Shown piece by piece: positions 11,899-26,161 of a stretch of 64,000 nucleotides of DNA. The position numbers and the translations under genes were made by a program. The DNA comes from a virus. Its lineage: Duplodnaviria > Heunggongvirae > Uroviricota > Caudoviricetes. The notes under the pieces are model-generated. The model was not told the origin of the DNA. It saw nothing but the letters and a program-made list of their open reading frames with translations, and ran no database searches. The stretch lies in IMG/VR virus record IMGVR_UViG_2531839524_000004, one strand, 5' to 3'. Position 1 is the stretch's first letter. Every line of letters starts with the position of its first letter.

Positions 11899-12097
11899 AC
11901 GGGAGAAGGAAACGCTTCATGAAATCAGTAAGTGGCCGGAGTTCCCTGAGTACTGGAAGCCTAAAACGCGAGCTAAGTTAGAGCGTTTAGGGTTGGTTGC
12001 AAACGTTTCTGAAACGTGGTGTTCGGCCAACTACCAGTTAACTGATAAAGGGAAAGTATTGCTACAGCAATTAGTAGAATCAGGAGTGTTAAAATGA
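11882..12097 (+). CDS. hypothetical protein
   Basis: 71 aa ORF, translationally coupled to flanking small genes. Confidence 0.4.
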   Translation: MIVLSKREKETLHEISKWPEFPEYWKPKTRAKLERLGLVANVSETWCSANYQLTDKGKVLLQQLVESGVLK

Positions 12098-12246
12098 TTC
12101 CATACATCTCATTAGCTTTTATGGGTGGCTTCCTTATCGGCTTCGGCATCTGTCGTGATTTAATTAAGCAGGAACTTAAAACCAAAACACTGTGCATCGG
12201 AAAGCGTGTGTATCGGGTAGTTCATGAAACAAAGGTGAAAAAATGA
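12094..12246 (+). CDS. small membrane protein (50 aa), paralog of 11719..11898
   Basis: ATGA overlap with upstream stop; TM helix FMGGFLIGFGI then KRVYRVVHE; not in ORF track (under 60 aa). Confidence 0.45.
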   Translation: MIPYISLAFMGGFLIGFGICRDLIKQELKTKTLCIGKRVYRVVHETKVKK

Positions 12247-12533
12247 GCAATTTAACTTCTTGGGAATGGTGGTTGGCCACCTATTTCTTAGCGGCCGGAG
12301 TCGCATTCGCCTTTTACGTAGGTCAGTTAGTCGTAAAACTGTTGCTGATTAAATTTGCTAGTCATAAACGTATCGATGATGGTCTGTGGCGTCTTGGCAC
12401 CCTGGTGGAAACTCGCTACGGGCAACTTAAGGAGAACGAAACCATTACTATCCAAGCGAAACGATTCACTGCCACCATTACAAGAACACCTAGTCGTAGA
12501 GTGGCCTTGATCAAAAAAGTCACAACCGAATAA
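12243..12533 (+). CDS. small membrane protein (96 aa)
   Basis: ATGA overlap with upstream gene; N-terminal TM helix YFLAAGVAFAFYVGQLV. Confidence 0.45.
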   Translation: MSNLTSWEWWLATYFLAAGVAFAFYVGQLVVKLLLIKFASHKRIDDGLWRLGTLVETRYGQLKENETITIQAKRFTATITRTPSRRVALIKKVTTE

Positions 12534-13311
12534 AAACATATTGATAAGTATTTACTTACTTATCTTTTGTGTATAAGATGACTTTGTTTTCGTTGAGACG
12601 CGACTGTTTGAACTTAAATACAAGTGCAAACGAAGAAGTCTATCTGGCAGTAGCCTAATAAGCCAAACACCAGCGAGGTCAGTTTCCAGCCTCGTTACCG
12701 AAATGGGACACACTGAGCGAGTGGGATTGCAGAACGCAGGAGGGAACATTCATGTTCCCTCCGATGAAGTAACAGAATGGGCGGTTGGTATATTTTCAAC
12801 TCCATATGACTCCCGGATTCTTAGCCACTGACCGCCCATTCTGTTACGTCATTTTGTTCAATTATGTCGTTTATACTGGGTTAAAAAGCGGCGACGTAGC
12901 CCGGCTGGTATGGTTAGCCAGCACACAACGTTGAGGCCATTACATTTTTATCAATTCTAAGGTTCTATTCACAGAGATACCGGCGAGCGTTGATATGTAA
13001 CATGTTGGGCAAACATTCAATCGGAGTAGTGGCCTCAACGTTGTGAAGACGGGATTGTTGTGTAGGTTTAACCACTGTTGCCATTGGTGCCTGTTTTCAC
13101 AACAAATGATTCCATACATCACATTGTATAAATTACAAAGTAGGTGCTGTCCTCAGAAACATCATCTACTTAAAGATTTTGCCTTCTACTATTGAGCGAA
13201 GTCGAAAGCGTCTGGCACTAACGAAAAGTGCAAGTAGCGGTGCGTTTCCTGGCAGAAACTAAACCGTCGCGATTGGCACTGTTGAGTAATAAATACTGGC
13301 AGTGCTGAATT

Positions 13312-13386
13312 GATGGTGTAGCTCAGCGGTAGAGCAGTTGGCTGTTAACCAACTGGTCGGTGGTTCGAATCCACCCACCATCGCCA
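13312..13386 (+). tRNA. tRNA-Asn (anticodon GTT)
   Basis: Hand-folded cloverleaf: acceptor GATGGTG/CACCATC, anticodon loop CTGTTAA, T-loop TTCGAAT, encoded CCA. Confidence 0.85.
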
Positions 13387-13391
13387 ATTTA

Positions 13392-13478
13392 GGGGAGTTA
13401 GTCCGTAGAGGTAGCGGTGTAGACTGTAAATCTACTGTCATGGCGACTCGGGTGGTTCGACTCCATCACTCCCCACCA
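13392..13478 (+). tRNA. tRNA-Tyr (anticodon GTA), long variable arm
   Basis: Acceptor GGGGAGT/ACTCCCC, anticodon loop CTGTAAA, long variable arm, encoded CCA. Confidence 0.8.
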
Positions 13479-13482
13479 AATT

Positions 13483-13558
13483 GCCGGTTTAGCTCAGTTG
13501 GTAGAGCGCCTGCCTTGTAAGCAGGATGTCAGCGGTTCGAGTCCGTTAACCGGCACCA
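13483..13558 (+). tRNA. tRNA-Thr (anticodon TGT)
   Basis: Acceptor GCCGGTT/AACCGGC, D-arm GCTCAGTTGGTAGAGC, anticodon loop CTTGTAA, T-loop TTCGAGT, CCA. Confidence 0.85.
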
Positions 13559-13775
13559 ACACAACAGGAAAGAGCATTGAAACCCGCCGAGACTGCCCTG
13601 TTTTAAGCGTAAGTCCGTGCAAACGTCATACAGTGCTCTTTTCGTTGTGGTTGATGCGCAGACTGATGCGCGGAAAGAAATGCCCCAGCGACACACGAGG
13701 CGAGTTCACACACTGCAATGCAGTCAGTAGCCGGGGTCGCTAAGCCGGAGATCAGTACCGGTAACCACAACAATT

Positions 13776-13862
13776 GGAGAGTAGGGAGCATGGTGCTCAA
13801 GCGGTCTTGAAAACCGTCCCATTGTGCAAACGATGATGGTTCGATTCCATTACTCTCCGCCA
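13776..13862 (+). tRNA. tRNA-Ser (anticodon TGA), long variable arm
   Basis: Acceptor GGAGAGT/ACTCTCC, anticodon loop CTTGAAA, long variable arm, T-loop TTCGATT, CCA; D-arm pairing slightly irregular. Confidence 0.7.
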
Positions 13863-14016
13863 GACACAGCGTTGAGCGGTTTGGCCTTTTAATCAACTCG
13901 ATTAAGACTCCGCTAACATAAACCAGACCGCTCAACGCTGTGATAGATAATTACGGCAGACGTTCTTAACCATAGCTTGCTAACATCCTAGCAACACTTT
14001 TTTCAGCGCAAAATTC

Positions 14017-14041
14017 AAAGGGGCTTCGGCCCCTTTTTTGT
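14017..14041 (+). terminator. rho-independent terminator closing the tRNA cluster
   Basis: GGGGC-TTCG-GCCCC followed by TTTTTT. Confidence 0.8.
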
Positions 14042-14054
14042 TGAACAGTGCAAT

Positions 14055-15317
14055 TTACTTTGCATAGTCGCCCAATTTTAATATTTCGCGCTTATATTCA
14101 TTAACCATGCTACTGGATTCAGTATAAATTCGATTTAAAAGATTATCGTTATCTTTATTTTCATTTATCTTAATTAGTGCTAATTTATATTCATAGTCAT
14201 CAAATGCCACAATTAAATGGTGGCCTGGGATTATATCTTCGTCACTCTTAAAGTATATATCTTCAAGTATGTAATCTAGTTGATTAGATTTTCTTTTCTC
14301 GATGTAATCTTCAGCCATAGCTATTACATCATTCCTGTCATTTAACCTGTTTTTTTCGGAAGGCACATCTTCGTAATGTTGCACGATTGAACAACCAATA
14401 AGGCGTGGGATGTAAACGTCAAAATGAGTAACTCTATCATTCGCGGTTTTAAGTAGTTCCTCAAAGTAGTTTCTTACATGTAAAGGCAACTTCTCAAAGT
14501 AATCATTAATTATAGGAGAACAAGGAGTTTTATAATTCATAAGAACCGACGGTACGAGCTTTGGGTGTCGAAACATCCAGTCCCTTTTAACGTCCGATGG
14601 AACATAATAACTTTTAATGATATTATCAAAATAATTTATCATTCGAGATTTGAATATTTTGTTGAATCTAAGGTTTATGAATGTATCCAGATAAGGCATA
14701 TTTGAATAAGCATCATCAAAAAATATTTCATCATTGAAAAAATCATATTTATTCAATAAACAACACAGTTTTTCCGAATTAATATGTTCACAATAATCGA
14801 TTTTTAATCCAAAGATAGCAATGATCAACTTCATCTGAGGTGGGATTTTAAAAATTAATTGTGACACATACGCTCTTTTTTCCTTGAGACATTCCCCATC
14901 AATATAAAATGAACCATCCACATACTCAAATATATTAATAATATGCTTCACATACTGTATTACCTCATGCTGTCTTACCAATGGATAATATAGTCTATGT
15001 AACTCATCGCTGTTTAAATTAATTTTGTGTTTATCGATAATTTGTTTTGCAAGAAGACATAACTCATCATGTTGATTTAATAAGGAATCAAACCATTGTT
15101 TAAATGCACTCTTTCGCATTTCGAACAATGATTCAGTTGTTAATTGAAGGGCTGAAAAAGCTGCTTTTGCACTTTTTCTCGCTTCGTAGGCATTCCATGC
15201 TGTTGCTATAAAAGCAAATGCTGTAGCCAATGTTCCAACAGTTTGACCATTTAAAACAACCCAATCCCAAAAAATGACGGTGAGCAGTAGTATAATAATG
15301 AAAATTAAAAAAGGCAT
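14055..15317 (-). CDS. membrane-anchored hypothetical protein, strongly AT-rich accessory gene
   Basis: 420 aa; two N-terminal TM helices; base composition much more AT-rich than flanking genes; isolated on minus strand. Confidence 0.6.
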   Translation of the reverse strand: MPFLIFIIILLLTVIFWDWVVLNGQTVGTLATAFAFIATAWNAYEARKSAKAAFSALQLTTESLFEMRKSAFKQWFDSLLNQHDELCLLAKQIIDKHKINLNSDELHRLYYPLVRQHEVIQYVKHIINIFEYVDGSFYIDGECLKEKRAYVSQLIFKIPPQMKLIIAIFGLKIDYCEHINSEKLCCLLNKYDFFNDEIFFDDAYSNMPYLDTFINLRFNKIFKSRMINYFDNIIKSYYVPSDVKRDWMFRHPKLVPSVLMNYKTPCSPIINDYFEKLPLHVRNYFEELLKTANDRVTHFDVYIPRLIGCSIVQHYEDVPSEKNRLNDRNDVIAMAEDYIEKRKSNQLDYILEDIYFKSDEDIIPGHHLIVAFDDYEYKLALIKINENKDNDNLLNRIYTESSSMVNEYKREILKLGDYAK

Positions 15318-15491
15318 GTATGTATTTCACTCTACTAACTATAAAATATTAGGCTAATGTTAACCAAACAATGCCTTAATTAATAGATTGATCGAGGCTT
15401 TAATAGCTTTATAATGCAGACTGTAAAGATAAGTATGCACATACCTATCTTCTTTGTAAGTAAAGTTGCATATCAATTCTATGAGGTAACA

Positions 15492-15737
15492 ATGACGATC
15501 ACTATCTACGGACGAGATAACTGCTCATACTGCAAACGTGCGGTCGAGCTGGCGAAGCAACTAAAGGGACATGGCTACGGTGATTATGAGTACATCGACA
15601 TCACCACTGCCGGTATCGACAAGGAAAAACTAAGTGAAATTGTTGGTAAACCGGTAGAGACTATCCCCCAAGTGCTGATCGATGGCCAACCGATTGGCGG
15701 ATACACAGAACTGGCTGCATACGTCAGCACCCTCTGA
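15492..15737 (+). CDS. glutaredoxin/NrdH-like redoxin
   Basis: MTITIYGRDNCSYCKRA with CxxC active-site motif; GAGG RBS 4 nt upstream of ATG 15492. Confidence 0.7.
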   Translation: MTITIYGRDNCSYCKRAVELAKQLKGHGYGDYEYIDITTAGIDKEKLSEIVGKPVETIPQVLIDGQPIGGYTELAAYVSTL

Positions 15738-15741
15738 TTTT

Positions 15742-15766
15742 AACGGCTCACAGGAGCCGTTTTTAT
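15742..15766 (+). terminator. rho-independent terminator
   Basis: AACGGCTC-acag-GAGCCGTT followed by TTTATT. Confidence 0.65.
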
Positions 15767-15947
15767 TCCCACCAAACTCACTCCCGTTTCCCTTAAAATT
15801 CAAAAAACAACGTCAAAATGATTCCATACCTACTATGTATGGAATCATTACTGAAAATGAGTTACTTTGACTCTTGATCCTATAAGAATCTATGCCTAAT
15901 ATACTGTTTACTTATACAGTGAATCGGCGTAACTCGGTGATTGTCAT

Positions 15948-17051
15948 ATGAAAAATAGCTTTGACAGAGCACGCGCTGCGGAGAACACCTCAAAAGAGGC
16001 GATTGAGTATCTCGAAAGAGCATCTCAAATGCAGGCCGTTATGATCTCGCAGGTTAGCAATGATATGAGATTCTCGGACGCATTCATGTTATTTACTCGC
16101 TTATCTCTGCTGATAACAAGACGTCGGCCGGAGATCGCTGTTCATTGTATTTTGATACATGTTTTGCCGCACATTGCTGATGTAAAAGTAAGTGACATTA
16201 ATAGGTTCATGGTGAACCAACTGGTCAACCCCCTAATACTGGATGGCAAAATTGTTATGGGCCGCCGCGTTTTCTCTCTGATGAAGCAGTTCCTTAGCTG
16301 GTGTGCCTTCCAGGGGATGATCGACGTGTCACCGTTAAACGATATGTCACTAAACAAAGTTGCCGGTGGCGCAAAGCCCACGCCTCGCGAGCGGAAGCTA
16401 ACCGACGCAGAGGTATGGGTGTTCTGGAATATATGGGACTACTTCAATGTGTGCGCTGGTACAAAATGGGCGGCCAGGCTATGTCTTGTATCCGCAAGAC
16501 GACCTGACGAAGTACTGCGGGCTAAAAAAAGTGAGTTCAACCTCCAGCGTGGGGTTTGGAATCAAGGCAAGAGAAACAAATCAGCCCGTGAGCATTCTCT
16601 GCCTTTAAGCACATTAATGCGCACATGCATTGAAGAGTTATTCGAATATGGTAAAGGCAGCCAGTGGCTTGTGCCTTCGAATAAAAAAATCGGGAAAGAT
16701 CTTCCGATGTCTAAAGTGGCAATAGCCCAGGCATTACGCCGTATCCTGGAACGACCAGAACTGATGGAGCTTGAGCCATTTACACCACGAGATTTGCGTC
16801 GTACTGCGCGTAGTTACTTCCCAGCATTAGGCATAAGCCAGGAGGTATCACGTAAAATCATGAACCACAGTCTTGAGGGGATAGATCGGGTCTACGACCG
16901 GCACGATTATATGGACGAGATGCGAGACGCCTTAGAAAGTTTCTCGACGTACATCGCATCAATCGTAGAGCAACCGGATTTAGACGAAATTGACCACAAA
17001 TTCAAGGGAGATCGTCTATCGACAGAGCTTATTCGTGTAAATTTTTCATAG
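15948..17051 (+). CDS. tyrosine recombinase / phage-type integrase
   Basis: C-terminal catalytic region with DLRRT box and NHSLEG...RVYDRHDY (His and Tyr nucleophile); first His of HxLRR appears to be Arg. Confidence 0.65.
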   Translation: MKNSFDRARAAENTSKEAIEYLERASQMQAVMISQVSNDMRFSDAFMLFTRLSLLITRRRPEIAVHCILIHVLPHIADVKVSDINRFMVNQLVNPLILDGKIVMGRRVFSLMKQFLSWCAFQGMIDVSPLNDMSLNKVAGGAKPTPRERKLTDAEVWVFWNIWDYFNVCAGTKWAARLCLVSARRPDEVLRAKKSEFNLQRGVWNQGKRNKSAREHSLPLSTLMRTCIEELFEYGKGSQWLVPSNKKIGKDLPMSKVAIAQALRRILERPELMELEPFTPRDLRRTARSYFPALGISQEVSRKIMNHSLEGIDRVYDRHDYMDEMRDALESFSTYIASIVEQPDLDEIDHKFKGDRLSTELIRVNFS

Positions 17052-17432
17052 AGACTTTATGGCCTCAACAACCTTTTGTGATGCGCCTTTCTCTTTACCG
17101 AATCGCTCGTTATATGCAGCAAGAACCTGTTTTTCGTCCTCGTTAAGAGGAGCAGTGCCTTCTTTGTATAAAAATGCTGCGAGTTCGGGTTGGCGTTCTT
17201 CCAGCACCATCATCATAAGACGACTTGGCTCAATACCCAGTGCCAGCGCCAGCGGACGAACCTTATCGATAGGCAAAGGAATTTTGCCGCTTTTAATTAA
17301 AGAAAGGTTGTTGGCGTTTTTATACCCAATTGTTTTGGCTATCTGGGCCTGGCTCATAGGTGAGGATTCAATCAACCCTGCGATAAAAGCAGCGTAGCGA
17401 CTTTCTATAAATTCAATCTTGTTGTCAGACAT
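17046..17432 (-). CDS. XRE-family helix-turn-helix transcriptional regulator
   Basis: HTH signature SQAQIAKTIGYKNANNLSLIKSGK; convergent with and overlapping recombinase 3' end. Confidence 0.7.
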   Translation of the reverse strand: MSDNKIEFIESRYAAFIAGLIESSPMSQAQIAKTIGYKNANNLSLIKSGKIPLPIDKVRPLALALGIEPSRLMMMVLEERQPELAAFLYKEGTAPLNEDEKQVLAAYNERFGKEKGASQKVVEAIKSL

Positions 17433-17684
17433 TGTTACAACCTTTGCGCGTTCAATTCTCTCTGGTAAGTGCTTACCGATATTACATCAAAGGTTAGGGT
17501 TGTAAAGCTATTATCATTTTTTTCGATAGGCACTTAAAAGACCGGTTAAAGGCCATTGCACGGAGAAAAAATTAGCCCAAAACAGGTAAGAAAATTAACT
17601 TGCATCTAATATGGATGTATTCAGTATTGATATAAATTTTAGTAGTATTCCTTACAATAGTATAAGTAAGAATGGATTGATTGA

Positions 17685-17897
17685 ATGAACACCACTATTT
17701 CCAGCCTAATAGCTCTTGAGATCGGACACGTACAAAAATTAGCTGATGAGTGTGTAGCTGACATCCTCACCGAGCTACCGAATGAGCAGATTGAGGTTGG
17801 TGTGAATGACACAACTGGCTTTATATTCGAACTTAACAACAAACGCTTCACGCTTATCAATACCGGCTCCGGGTCTTTAGCCGTCAGAACCTGTTAA
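17685..17897 (+). CDS. hypothetical small protein
   Basis: 70 aa ORF divergent from HTH regulator across an AT-rich intergenic region. Confidence 0.3.
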   Translation: MNTTISSLIALEIGHVQKLADECVADILTELPNEQIEVGVNDTTGFIFELNNKRFTLINTGSGSLAVRTC

Positions 17898-17995
17898 TCC
17901 CTCTTCTACCTGCGCGAATGGCTTAGTTCCCTGTTCGCGCAGTGCTACATTAAACACACTAGTAAATAATTTGTTTTCATAACAAAGGATTAGCC

Positions 17996-20104
17996 ATGTC
18001 TAAAAAACGTTCCATCAAAGAGGTTCAGGACTTCCGTGACAGTGTAAAACGAGTAGTCGCTCTCCTTTCAGGTAAAAACATCCCTGTTGCAGAACGAGGG
18101 GACGACGCTTATGTACGCTATAACGATGATGGAGAGCCAATTCTCGTAAACATCCCATCAATCCCGGATAACGCAACACCGGCATTGATGAATGCTGTGC
18201 GCGGATTTCTCGATCATGAGGTTGCTCACATTTTGTTTACCGATATTCGTGTGTCCAACAAAATGAGAGAAAAAGGACGCGTTCCTTCCTGGTCGCTATG
18301 GAATGCCTTAGAAGACGTGTTCATCGAGCGAAAAATGGGTCAGGTCTTTAACGGAACAAGACGTAATCTGATGGCAACTCAGCGCCTTATAATCGAAAAA
18401 GTCTTTAAACCAAAGGCTTCAGAGGCTATTGCTTATTGTGGCAAAGATCAGCGCGCGCTTTTTCTAAACTTCTTTCTCTGTCCGGTTGTAAGAGCCTGGG
18501 ATGGCCAAGCACCGTTCGTAGATTTCATGGATGAATATTGGCCTGTCATTGAGAAACCAATTTCATTATTAAAAGAACATGGTATCGATGTGGCCGTGCG
18601 TAACATGTCTTGCACCGAGGATTGTGTAAAGGTGGCTGCGACCATAGCTAAGATCCTCAAAGACACTGAAAGTGAAAGCAAAGGTAAGGAGTCAGCTCCG
18701 GGAAAAACTTCCGATCCTTCAGACGCTGACCAGACGGATGCCTCTGGAGAAAACAATGAAGACAACGAAGATCATGAGACACTCTCAGTGTTAGATAATC
18801 ACAAATCTATCAAATCAGAATCACATAGTAAGTACAAACATGATAATAACGACAGTGATGATTCAGATAATTCTGAATCATCAGAAACAATATTCGATGA
18901 TACAGAAAATGATAAAGAGGTATCAGATTCTGATGCTTCTGATAACGCGGCGTCAGAATCATTAACCGCTGACCACGAAAAAAGAAAAACGACAGAAGAC
19001 GGCTCTTCAGATATCCCAACTCCGTCAAAAATGAGTCTGGAAGAGGCTTTAGAGGAGCTGGATAGCATAGAAGATGAAGTCGGAGGCATGACAGAAGATG
19101 CTCTATCCGAAACGATTAAAAGCGAGTTAACAGAAAGCTCGAAAAGCGAATACAGGCCATACAATCGCTCATACGACTTCATCGGCTCGATTGATCAGGC
19201 AGAAGCCCATATCAAACGGCTTATTAAAACATTCTCCGATATTGATTTAGGTGGATATCCAATCAGCCGTTATCGCATCGTTCCTGAAGGCAACCAACTC
19301 TTCGACAAATATATTGAAAAGCACCTTTCGTCAGGTGTTTCGTCGACGCTGGCAAAAGACCTGGAACGTGCAATAGCAAGCAGAAACAGAGTTCAGTTTA
19401 TACCTGGCCAGCGTCGGGGGCGCATTCATGGTTCAAGTATCTACAGATTAACAATGAATGATGATCGCGTGTTTCGTAAAAAAGAAGAATCTAAAGCCGT
19501 TAACGCCTGTGTTCAACAAGTGATTGATTTATCAGGTTCAATGAGTGGTATAACGATACAATTGGCTCTTGCAAGTGCATATACCATCGCCGATGCCCTT
19601 GATCGAATAAATGTTCCCAACATTATCACCGGCTTCACTACATTTGGTAGTCATATGGCGGCAGGAGAACTTAAGGCTGTCAAGTATGAGTTCTCTCGCT
19701 TTGAATCTTTAATGCTACCTATCATCAAAAATTGGAATGAAAAGGTAAATTCTCGCGAAGTTCGCTCACGTATGGGGTGCGTAGGCTACACATTCCCACT
19801 TCTTAATAACGTGGATGGTGAAAGCATAGCCAGCCTTGCATCGTTATTTTCCGGTCGCATGGAGGACAGGAAGATCATGCTTGTTCTGAGTGATGGCGCG
19901 CCGTGGGCTGTTGGGAGAGGTTTTGACGCTCATTTGCGTTCAGTTGCGAAGCAAATTGAAACGCAGACTGATATTGATTTGATGGCAATTGGCATCATGA
20001 CTGACGCACCGGAGAGATTTTACGCAAATCATGCCCTGGTAACGAGCGTTGATAGTCTTGGTGCATCTGTAGTTACTGAACTATCTCGTATCATTTTGAA
20101 GTGA
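17996..20104 (+). CDS. VWA-domain protein (CobT-like) with acidic Ser/Asp-rich insert
   Basis: MIDAS motif in VIDLSGSMSG; long low-complexity acidic segment (residues about 230-330). Confidence 0.7.
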   Translation: MSKKRSIKEVQDFRDSVKRVVALLSGKNIPVAERGDDAYVRYNDDGEPILVNIPSIPDNATPALMNAVRGFLDHEVAHILFTDIRVSNKMREKGRVPSWSLWNALEDVFIERKMGQVFNGTRRNLMATQRLIIEKVFKPKASEAIAYCGKDQRALFLNFFLCPVVRAWDGQAPFVDFMDEYWPVIEKPISLLKEHGIDVAVRNMSCTEDCVKVAATIAKILKDTESESKGKESAPGKTSDPSDADQTDASGENNEDNEDHETLSVLDNHKSIKSESHSKYKHDNNDSDDSDNSESSETIFDDTENDKEVSDSDASDNAASESLTADHEKRKTTEDGSSDIPTPSKMSLEEALEELDSIEDEVGGMTEDALSETIKSELTESSKSEYRPYNRSYDFIGSIDQAEAHIKRLIKTFSDIDLGGYPISRYRIVPEGNQLFDKYIEKHLSSGVSSTLAKDLERAIASRNRVQFIPGQRRGRIHGSSIYRLTMNDDRVFRKKEESKAVNACVQQVIDLSGSMSGITIQLALASAYTIADALDRINVPNIITGFTTFGSHMAAGELKAVKYEFSRFESLMLPIIKNWNEKVNSREVRSRMGCVGYTFPLLNNVDGESIASLASLFSGRMEDRKIMLVLSDGAPWAVGRGFDAHLRSVAKQIETQTDIDLMAIGIMTDAPERFYANHALVTSVDSLGASVVTELSRIILK

Positions 20105-25312: not shown

Positions 25313-26161
25313 TCAATATTTAACAAATATTTCATTAAGCCTAGGGTTAACTTGGTCATATTTATCTATGTCGTCTTTTAAAACTGAATGACATTTGACA
25401 CCAATTTCAAATGCTATCAATATCGAATTTATATATTGATTATAGCATTCAATCAAAGATTTAATATCAGATGATAGTTGTATCAACCGTGGATTGACTC
25501 TAAGAGCACTAATAACCTTATCATACTTGTTAAGCAACCCATTCAATTCATTAGCAAAATTATATGGATAACCATTTTGGTATGTATTTTCATCATCAGC
25601 AGGACCTAAATAATCACCAATGCACTTAAGTTTATTCTTAATGAATACAGCATCTTCAGTGGCATCTATATCATTTTTCGTTAAGAAAAGTTCTATCCAC
25701 TTGTTCTTGTCCGACTCTTTCAAAAGGTTATTTTCTTTATCAAAAGTAATACAATAGCTATCACTTTTTTTCTCGTTGGAAATACTAATCATTTCCGCCA
25801 ACTCGTCTTTACCTAAATGTTTCCAAAATATTACAGGGAGACCGTTGTCGTTTAGAAAAACGCGAACAATGACAATCGGATCATTAATACTTTGCCAATA
25901 AATTAAATTTTTAATAGGTACAGAAACTCTTAGTGAATCATCGATTTTTTTACTTGTTGTTTTAACTTGAACTCCAATAAACATACCTGTTGAATGACAG
26001 TTGTCATCATAAATCTCAACCTGAGCATCCAACCCCATGTCAATATCAAGAATTCGGCAAGGCCATACAAATTTATTTGAAATCCAATATGCGAAATAAA
26101 ACTCACCAGCATTTCCGTTAGCAACTCTTTCGATATATCTCATGCCCTGATCGTTTGCCAC
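25313..26161 (-). CDS. hypothetical protein with PD-(D/E)xK-like N-terminal motif (recalled DUF4365-like pattern); AT-rich accessory gene
   Basis: 282 aa; LDIDMGLDAQVEIY ... IGVQVKTT arrangement; isolated minus-strand AT-rich gene convergent with polymerase. Confidence 0.55.
   Translation of the reverse strand: MANDQGMRYIERVANGNAGEFYFAYWISNKFVWPCRILDIDMGLDAQVEIYDDNCHSTGMFIGVQVKTTSKKIDDSLRVSVPIKNLIYWQSINDPIVIVRVFLNDNGLPVIFWKHLGKDELAEMISISNEKKSDSYCITFDKENNLLKESDKNKWIELFLTKNDIDATEDAVFIKNKLKCIGDYLGPADDENTYQNGYPYNFANELNGLLNKYDKVISALRVNPRLIQLSSDIKSLIECYNQYINSILIAFEIGVKCHSVLKDDIDKYDQVNPRLNEIFVKY

Follow-up and report, generated by a model that had tools for sequence, protein, structure and literature searches.

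A divergent AbiC-type membrane protein gene as candidate anti-phage cargo of an SSU5-like phage-plasmid

The DNA analysed here (IMG/VR virus record IMGVR_UViG_2531839524_000004, 64,000 nucleotides, Caudoviricetes; the whole stretch is called the window below) carries at 14055-15317, on the minus strand, an unannotated gene for a protein of 420 amino acids that can be tied to the AbiC/AbiP family of abortive-infection (Abi) proteins. In our reading, to which we give a probability of about 0.55, the product is a single-protein, membrane-anchored anti-phage factor of the AbiC/AbiP (putAbiC) type, carried as exchangeable cargo by an SSU5-like phage-plasmid. Homology, architecture, the conservation pattern, the behaviour of the cassette and the defence-island neighbours of related genes all support this reading. 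From its sequence the gene is a plausible anti-phage gene; a defence function for the protein is fairly likely, and it would probably work as a single-gene abortive-infection defence.

Dairy lactococci have been a known source of AbiC/AbiP-type proteins for three decades, and AbiC itself was reportedly described in 1992. The gene described here is carried by about one-fifth of Escherichia coli SSU5-like phage-plasmids, so that the family can now be represented in a species for which phage panels and genetics are excellent. The gene would be useful as a tractable E. coli entry into the AbiC-type family and reveals no new kind of system. The putAbiC family itself and the occurrence of prophage- or plasmid-borne Abi genes in hotspots were already known; new are the assignment of a clade of 'hypothetical proteins' to the family, a conservation pattern that points to a membrane helix and its stalk as the functional core, and a fixed slot in SSU5-like phage-plasmids across genera. 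Current models of the Pfam, PADLOC and DefenseFinder type under-count the family in phage-plasmid defence screens. Defence and toxin genes are exchanged in this slot, which has sharp boundaries and belongs to a lineage of phage-plasmids that is clinically widespread.

The gene and its family

The gene and its upstream region are placed as follows:

14055-15317, minus strand: coding sequence of the AbiC-like membrane protein (420 residues, ATG start, stop codon at 14055-14057; from the list of open reading frames)
15318-15480, minus strand: AT-rich upstream non-coding region, part of the exchangeable cassette, with a presumed promoter and ribosome-binding site of its own

An earlier note, made from the letters and a list of open reading frames (ORFs), had described a 420-residue frame on the opposite strand, strikingly AT-rich, without recognisable motifs and with an architecture common among abortive-infection and superinfection-exclusion proteins. 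The frame lies exactly there, and its composition, once computed, is as extreme as had been claimed: G+C content (GC) is 0.314 against 0.451 for the window (z = -4.2 over all 1263-bp windows), and no other 1263-bp stretch of the entire 64 kb is lower. Codon usage deviates too, GC at third codon positions (GC3) being 0.28 in this gene and 0.39-0.55 in its neighbours. As for motifs, the statement holds for direct scans, in which the protein has no Pfam match even at E <= 10 and none in PADLOC or NCBIfam, but not for profile comparison, which finds putAbiC. The sole significant match in PHROGs is family 18168 (E 2e-217), which has no assigned function; two remaining matches are insignificant (E 0.015 and 0.2).

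The family assignment is transitive. An exhaustive HMMER profile search of 1.84 billion representative proteins returned 66 relatives at E <= 1e-3, 21 of them at E <= 1e-30, and all those identified belong to Enterobacterales. A match to PF16872 (putAbiC, 'putative phage abortive infection protein') is found in 38 of the 54 relatives that are nearly full-length, and when 20 relatives were scanned individually, 12 reached or passed the gathering score of 22 bits, with a maximum of 45 bits (P0029, hmmsearch E 5e-26); the same-slot allele P0007 scores 18 bits and P0009 22.0 bits. The PADLOC model for AbiC is matched by 7 of the 54 (best E 1.3e-6) and that for AbiP by 4. When the window's subfamily is compared by hhalign with eleven members that pass the cut-off, the probability is 99.94% (E 8e-37) over 326 columns, corresponding to residues 14-349. 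A direct link is provided by tblastn, which finds a Pantoea agglomerans plasmid gene that NCBI calls 'putative phage abortive infection protein' (E 3e-7); the reciprocal search with the Pantoea protein leads back to the window's alleles at E 2e-8 to 4e-9. Named relatives come from Enterobacter, Serratia (chromosomal), Cedecea, Pectobacterium, Pantoea, Lelliottia and Siccibacter.

Proteins of P. agglomerans (WP_161569778.1), Cedecea (WP_336819259.1) and Pectobacterium (WP_104212255.1) are homologous to the window protein over about 320 residues and have the same hairpin, stalk and core, with profile E values of 5e-26, 5.7e-12 and 2.5e-08 for the Pantoea, Cedecea and Pectobacterium types, respectively. 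Identity with them is 18-24%, and they pass the Pfam cut-off, whereas members of the SSU5-slot clade fall short of it or at best barely attain it, and all are annotated 'hypothetical protein'. Judged by these comparisons, the window protein belongs to the putAbiC superfamily as a divergent enterobacterial member and appears to have the core and the general layout in common with lactococcal AbiC, and the suggestion of an abortive-infection type of protein has found a concrete, if remote, homologue.

The known AbiC has two transmembrane helices and an extra-membrane helical domain, with no function assignable from the fold (PMC13064643). The window protein is predicted to be built in the same way, with two N-terminal membrane helices followed by a helical extra-membrane domain for which no solved structural relative was found, and like AbiC and putAbiC genes its gene is a single-gene unit, borne by a mobile element and strongly AT-rich relative to its surroundings. 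With putAbiC it has a core of about 80 residues in common, by transitive profile homology. The lactococcal side of the comparison is the AbiC-like protein of p275A (32 bits on PF16872), not the founding AbiC of pTN20; it has 338 residues rather than 420, and its core lies at 190-245 instead of 112-200. Host and carrier differ as well, being Enterobacterales and a phage-plasmid here. A 2026 FEMS review groups AbiP structurally with AbiC as the 'AbiC/P group' (PMC13064643). AbiP is likewise a membrane-anchored single-protein Abi system, but it has one membrane helix and a sequence-independent RNA- and single-stranded DNA (ssDNA)-binding domain, whereas the window protein combines a hairpin of two helices with an acidic soluble part and does not match the PADLOC AbiP model.

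The nomenclature calls for some care. AbiC (PF16872, putAbiC) and Abi_C (PF14355) are mixed up in the literature, where one paper lists 'AbiC (pfam14355)', and because of this confusion text-mining for AbiC returns unrelated systems. Three literature matches to 'AbiC' were discarded on this account, since they concern the unrelated Abi_C/PF14355 HEPN domain, and the name 'putAbiC' was not met in a literature text search. Abi_C, the HEPN C-terminal domain of AbiJ and SadR, is alike in name only: it belongs to an RNase family without a membrane hairpin and has no match to the window protein.

The cargo slot and its distribution

The following features define the slot and its flanks:

14041-15480, no strand: exchangeable cassette of gene plus upstream region; the backbone is conserved in all relatives on both sides
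14017-14036, no strand: left-junction hairpin, rich in G+C and with a T-run (AAAGGGGCTTCGGCCCCTTTTTTT), 18 nt past the stop codon of the AbiC-like gene (terminator scan)
13312-13862, plus strand: backbone cluster of tRNA-Asn, -Tyr, -Thr and -Ser (ARAGORN, Rfam)
15492-15737, plus strand: GrxA-family glutaredoxin gene (grx), 81 residues (Pfam Glutaredoxin, 6.6e-11)
15948-17051, plus strand: backbone tyrosine recombinase/integrase (Pfam Phage_integrase)

Positions 12000-18000 are 94-98% identical to Escherichia phages Cyrano and CMS-2020a, with Salmonella phage SSU5 more distant, and E. coli plasmids of about 110 kb, typed non-mobilizable, match the gene region at 99.9% identity. Because this double identity to phages and plasmids comes with SSU5-type backbone genes in the surroundings (DNA ligase, the CobT/AAA pair and DnaE), the window is, by sequence, an SSU5-like phage-plasmid of E. 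coli.

The earlier note had placed the gene beside tRNA genes and a tyrosine recombinase, at a hotspot for horizontally acquired cargo, and had proposed a synteny comparison. The gene does lie between the two, although grx separates it from the recombinase, and the comparison uncovers conserved flanks with varying cargo between the tRNA-Ser terminator and grx. Against eight related loci, blastn places the left junction at 14037-14042 and the right one at 15480-15503, at the start of grx. In sister elements the same slot holds an AbiGi-family gene with a 403-residue partner, a Gp49-family gene, two hypothetical genes with a PhoH remnant, a 637-residue DUF6645 protein, or alleles of the AbiC-like gene that are 54% or 32% identical. 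The slot is thus a defence-island or hotspot cargo site in the operational sense of conserved flanks around variable content that includes defence and toxin genes. The hairpin at the left junction likely terminates the tRNA operon and, on the other strand, the AbiC-like gene, and would then serve in both directions.

How the alleles came to differ can be judged from synonymous divergence (dS), which is saturated between slot alleles (1.55 and 2.5) and only 0.14 for the adjacent recombinase, whose amino-acid identity between elements with different cargo is about 99-99.5%. Rapid divergence of alleles in place was rejected on this ground; on the sequence evidence the alleles are much older than the backbones that carry them and have been swapped in. 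Since no direct (att-like) repeats flank the cassette, the exchange is most simply read as homologous recombination within the conserved flanks. The ORF list, Rfam and a repeat search show no second ORF, Rfam family or ToxI-like repeat array in the cassette, neighbour genes differ at every locus examined with no conserved partner gene, and the AbiC-like gene is a single-gene unit.

In complete E. coli genomes the gene occurs on plasmids only, never on the chromosome; of 211 genomes with plasmids that have these flanks, 39 carry it. It is missing from the closest phage records, and no match came from a tblastn search of 50,697 phage records. Only seven clusters emerged when 5.8 billion proteins were searched by word index, with identities of 98, 89, 89, 88, 83, 54 and 32% (one of the 89% clusters is partial, with 235 residues or 56% of the query), and wherever a cluster could be located, its gene occupied one and the same position on an SSU5-like element, between tRNA cluster and grx. 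Relatives were found by tblastn on 138 of 72,556 plasmids, among them 71 from Escherichia, 37 from Klebsiella, 18 from Enterobacter, 6 from Salmonella, 3 from Pantoea and 2 from Citrobacter. The Klebsiella and Salmonella SSU5-like plasmids that were examined carry homologues of about 34-36% identity at the equivalent position, beside phoH-gp49-grx and on the opposite strand; in elements of Escherichia, Klebsiella and Salmonella, the family has long resided in the slot. Truncated 62-kb plasmids of E. albertii also carry the gene between the tRNA cluster and grx. These E. albertii elements (e.g. NZ_CP034165.1, 63.8 kb) measure 62-64 kb rather than about 110 kb and keep the replication module along with the AbiC-like gene; the SSU5-type plasmids of about 62 kb also bear hdeA/hdeB acid-chaperone genes and a GNAT/DUF1778 toxin-antitoxin pair.

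Homologues outside phage-plasmids were examined at three chromosomal or large-contig loci, each of which is an AT-rich island. The Lelliottia homologue adjoins AriA/AriB of PARIS (PADLOC E 6.6e-40 and 6.6e-23), the Siccibacter homologue adjoins bSEFIR (E 8.8e-111) and the Pantoea homologue lies between a DNA methylase and a UmuC-like gene. The first two are located as follows:

L009, 7746-9777: Lelliottia homologue locus with PARIS
L010, 4037-5506: Siccibacter homologue locus with bSEFIR

The available text of a DefenseFinder-based survey of 1,227 SSU5 contigs names AbiH, PrrC, PD-T4-3 and others and makes no mention of AbiC (bioRxiv 10.1101/2025.09.12.675607), which, as far as that text goes, fits a clade that escapes current models.

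Low G+C content as a sign of recent transfer, part of the case for horizontally acquired cargo in the earlier note, was rejected, while the variable slot itself bears out the exchange. In every homologue examined, from all genera and with Lactococcus included, the gene is 10-19 points below its surroundings; AT-richness is a standing trait of the family, and because it is family-wide it is no proof of recent transfer and gives no date of acquisition. The gene is functional, being under purifying selection (the ratio of nonsynonymous to synonymous divergence, dN/dS, is 0.21-0.32), with a constraint far weaker than that on the phage-plasmid backbone. A promoter scan found no convincing sigma-70 site on the minus strand upstream of the gene, for which reason the promoter in 15318-15480 is a presumed one.

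These observations bear on the possibility that the gene encodes an accessory membrane protein with no part in defence, active in addiction or toxicity, lysis timing or envelope physiology, or that it is a passenger under weak selection, kept silent by H-NS because it is AT-rich. In Enterobacteria, DNA under xenogeneic silencing is typically AT-rich; the upstream region here lacks a clear sigma-70 promoter, and the 'abortive infection' label of PF16872 is itself 'putative'. Such a role is nevertheless improbable, given that purifying selection acts across alleles with saturated synonymous divergence, that the family persists in the same slot across four genera, that its neighbours at independent chromosomal sites are defence systems and that the alternative occupants of the slot are Abi or toxin-type genes. 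Its absence from most sister elements also means that the gene is not needed for replication, lysis or maintenance. A virion or replication function was looked for as well and rejected, as no such homology was found and the gene is only variably present; together with the real dip in G+C content, this leaves the earlier proposal standing.

The slot also invites a reading as superinfection exclusion, in which an inner-membrane protein would block DNA entry of incoming phages, possibly including related SSU5-like elements. Extreme allelic diversity at a fixed locus in near-identical backbones speaks for it, since an entry block against related elements would explain very divergent alleles at one locus, as do the variable presence in 39 of 211 genomes, the membrane anchor, the opposite strand and the moron-like position near the recombinase/repressor module. 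Known exclusion proteins such as T4 Imm and Sp, P22 SieA and lactococcal Sie2009 are small, however, whereas the window protein has a predicted cytoplasmic domain of about 375 residues. Its homologues also occur in chromosomal defence islands outside phage-plasmids, and no exclusion-family match was found for it in PHROGs or Pfam, nor among the 50,697 phage records. The related lactococcal systems, moreover, act after DNA entry (PMC13064643). We therefore regard exclusion as quite improbable. Both this and the non-defence role are possible readings, but an AbiC/AbiP-type defence protein accounts better for the size of the cytoplasmic domain, for the defence-island neighbours and for the pattern of selection.

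Protein architecture, proposed mechanism and alternatives

Four regions can be told apart in the protein:

15186-15317, minus strand: two-helix membrane hairpin, residues 1-44 (hydropathy, alignment invariants, AlphaFold helices)
15018-15185, minus strand: juxtamembrane stalk helix, residues 45-100, continuous with the second membrane helix (conserved, among the lowest-entropy parts of the alignment)
14718-14984, minus strand: equivalent of the putAbiC (PF16872) core, 80 positions, residues 112-200 (aligned positions in relatives, hhalign coverage)
14058-14717, minus strand: variable C-terminal half, residues 201-420, helices and a small three-stranded sheet (column entropy, dN/dS, modelled secondary structure)

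The two N-terminal transmembrane (TM) helices noticed earlier are recovered by hydropathy and by AlphaFold. The first (TM1, residues 2-22) is strongly hydrophobic; after a loop at N23-Q25, the second (TM2, about 26-42) is rich in Ala, Thr and Phe, moderately hydrophobic (Kyte-Doolittle 1.59) and highly conserved, and its hydrophobicity is higher in relatives than in the window protein. The AlphaFold model obtained with a 54-sequence alignment has a mean predicted local distance difference test score (pLDDT) of 85.5 and a predicted template-modelling score of 0.73, compared with a poor pLDDT of 61.6 from a 7-sequence alignment. It consists of a helix at 2-22, a single long helix at 24-96 that joins TM2 and the stalk, a helical bundle to about residue 306 and a three-stranded sheet with flanking helices to 413. 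Confidence in this monomer model is lowest at residues 31-60, which would fit a helix that needs a partner. Because the positive charges R47, K48 and K51 directly follow TM2, the large C-terminal domain is predicted by the positive-inside rule to be cytoplasmic. The soluble part is acidic (pI 6.0, with 57 D+E against 50 K+R), while the stalk alone is basic.

Conservation is concentrated at the membrane end. In an alignment of relatives at 27-34% identity and one 55%-identical allele, the invariants cluster in TM2 and the stalk (T32, A35, F36, T39, A40, W41, A43, A46, S49, A53, A56, T60, L64, E66, K69, F72 and W75). TM2 shows a near-invariant motif, T32..A35 F36..T39 A40 W41, and the stalk the consensus YEARKSAKAA...SL.E.RK..F..W...LL.QH. 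TM1, in contrast, is kept in hydrophobicity only, and because TM2 is near-invariant where TM1 is not, it is likely to be more than a mere anchor. Over residues 28-80 conservation has a period of 3.4-3.6 residues (permutation p 0.008-0.035), that is, conservation follows one face of the helix. The alignment columns of residues 1-200 have an entropy of 1.7-2.7 bits, those of 201-420 one of 2.9-3.4 bits; in the same direction, dN/dS relative to the E. albertii allele rises from 0.11 in the first 100 residues to 0.29-0.45 past residue 200. The family-wide invariants that fall within the core, Y122, F193 and F194, are aromatic or hydrophobic, and since the window's clade lacks the polar motifs seen in the wider family, the sequence gives no sign of a catalytic site.

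A mechanism can be proposed on this basis for an AbiC/AbiP-type defence. The cargo gene would protect the host cell, and hence the resident element, from other phages. The N-terminal hairpin would keep the large domain at the inner membrane, on its cytoplasmic side, where TM2 and the Ala/Ser/Thr-rich stalk (residues 26-100) may form a homo-oligomeric module and, with the putAbiC core (about 112-200), a conserved effector or scaffold that is probably oligomeric. The fast-diverging C-terminal half (201-420) could set which phage product is recognised. On sensing infection, the protein would halt phage development, giving an abortive-infection phenotype, and the halt would most likely be exerted at the membrane, e.g. 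through loss of integrity or potential. This division of the halves into sensor and effector is a suggestion from the conservation pattern, and a membrane-directed effector step in particular is a tentative, rather doubtful element of the proposal. By analogy, such a protein would resemble SLATT, CARF_TM, Cap15-like and RexB-type effectors, in which a small membrane module is triggered to collapse the membrane, but there is no significant sequence or fold similarity to any of them, and the likeness is not one of membership: single relatives show isolated sub-threshold matches (SLATT_1, E 0.23; CARF_TM, E 0.001-0.002), and the window protein shows none.

In a bolder version of the proposal, which we consider unlikely, the SSU5-slot proteins would form a distinct enterobacterial defence clade missed by detectors, with TM2 and the stalk producing a phage-triggered membrane lesion and the C-terminal half acting as a swappable sensor. 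If this were true, allele replacement at one locus would retune which phages or rival phage-plasmids are excluded, and the gene would offer the first genetically tractable E. coli model for how AbiC-type proteins work.

The protein may instead provide AbiC/P-type defence by a route that does not involve the membrane. The hairpin would then serve for localisation only, and the tethered cytoplasmic domain would bind RNA or ssDNA of the phage, or one of its proteins, and derail either the early-to-late switch or the synthesis of late (capsid) proteins. AbiC lowers production of the major capsid protein while DNA replication is unaffected, and AbiP binds RNA in preference to ssDNA and requires its membrane anchor (PMC13064643). 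The four relatives that match the AbiP model, and the lack of invariant polar, catalytic-looking residues in the family, which suits a binding function better than an enzymatic one, point the same way. Less favourable are the acidity of the soluble part, with the stalk alone being basic, and the missing direct match of the window protein to AbiP; near-invariance of TM2 relative to TM1 likewise argues that the membrane segment is more than an anchor. As a full account of this protein we hold the non-membrane route to be unlikely; the modes reported for AbiC and AbiP, reduced capsid protein on the one hand, RNA binding and a blocked early-to-late switch on the other, are a serious rival to the proposed mechanism.

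Several points weigh against our preferred reading of a membrane-anchored AbiC/AbiP-type anti-phage factor. The window protein itself does not reach the gathering score of PF16872 and, unlike AbiC and putAbiC proteins, matches neither this family nor the PADLOC AbiC model, nor any NCBIfam model. A broad family profile aligns with the p275A AbiC-like protein over only 59 columns, within the core, at 55% probability (E 1.2e-4), and the close subfamily profile does not align with it. The TM2 helix of the window protein is weakly hydrophobic, and polar residues that are conserved in the wider putAbiC family (SPYMR, YH, RS, ND, FEHA) are replaced in its clade. The defence role is deduced from sequence for the window protein and for all its enterobacterial relatives alike, and the argument from defence neighbours rests on the three chromosomal loci. 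A relative of the lactococcal AbiC-like protein gave no protection against the phages tested (PMC11381338). Finally, the membrane-effector step has no precedent in the family, because AbiC is reported to cut capsid protein and not to damage membranes.

Neighbouring genes and other variable sites

The tRNA cluster varies among close relatives. In Cyrano it reads Asn-Thr-Ser, without the tRNA-Tyr found here at 13392-13478, and the spacing before tRNA-Ser differs in other elements. Directly after tRNA-Ser, at 13865-13942 and upstream of the terminator hairpin, lies a 20-nt inverted repeat that is 95% complementary and encloses a 38-nt loop.

On the other side of the cassette, a glutaredoxin ORF of 107 residues can be read from 15414, but this is an over-extension: annotated homologues have 246 nt (81 residues) and start at the equivalent of 15492, and backbone homology that resumes at about 15480 fits this start. 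Insertions vary at a second site too, 15738-15815 between grx and the recombinase gene, which here contains nothing but a terminator-like hairpin (15742-15761) and in relatives holds a YafO toxin gene with a 202-residue gene, or a 184-residue gene. It is followed at 15817-15849 by a near-perfect palindrome of 33 bp (AATGATTCCATACCTA/TATGTATGGAATCATT), about 100 bp upstream of the recombinase gene and kept in all eight of the related loci, which is possibly a regulatory or recombination site. One further gene adjoins the recombinase:

17046-17432, minus strand: helix-turn-helix repressor-like gene

The second strongest dip in G+C content in the window (GC 0.34, GC3 0.27) is found farther away, at 25313-26161 on the minus strand, just after dnaE. 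The 282-residue ORF located there has a DUF4365 nuclease-like domain (Pfam, 1.1e-13) and also matches the PADLOC REase domain of Argonaute-associated effectors (1.5e-13); judging from these matches, it is probably another defence-type cargo gene of the phage-plasmid.

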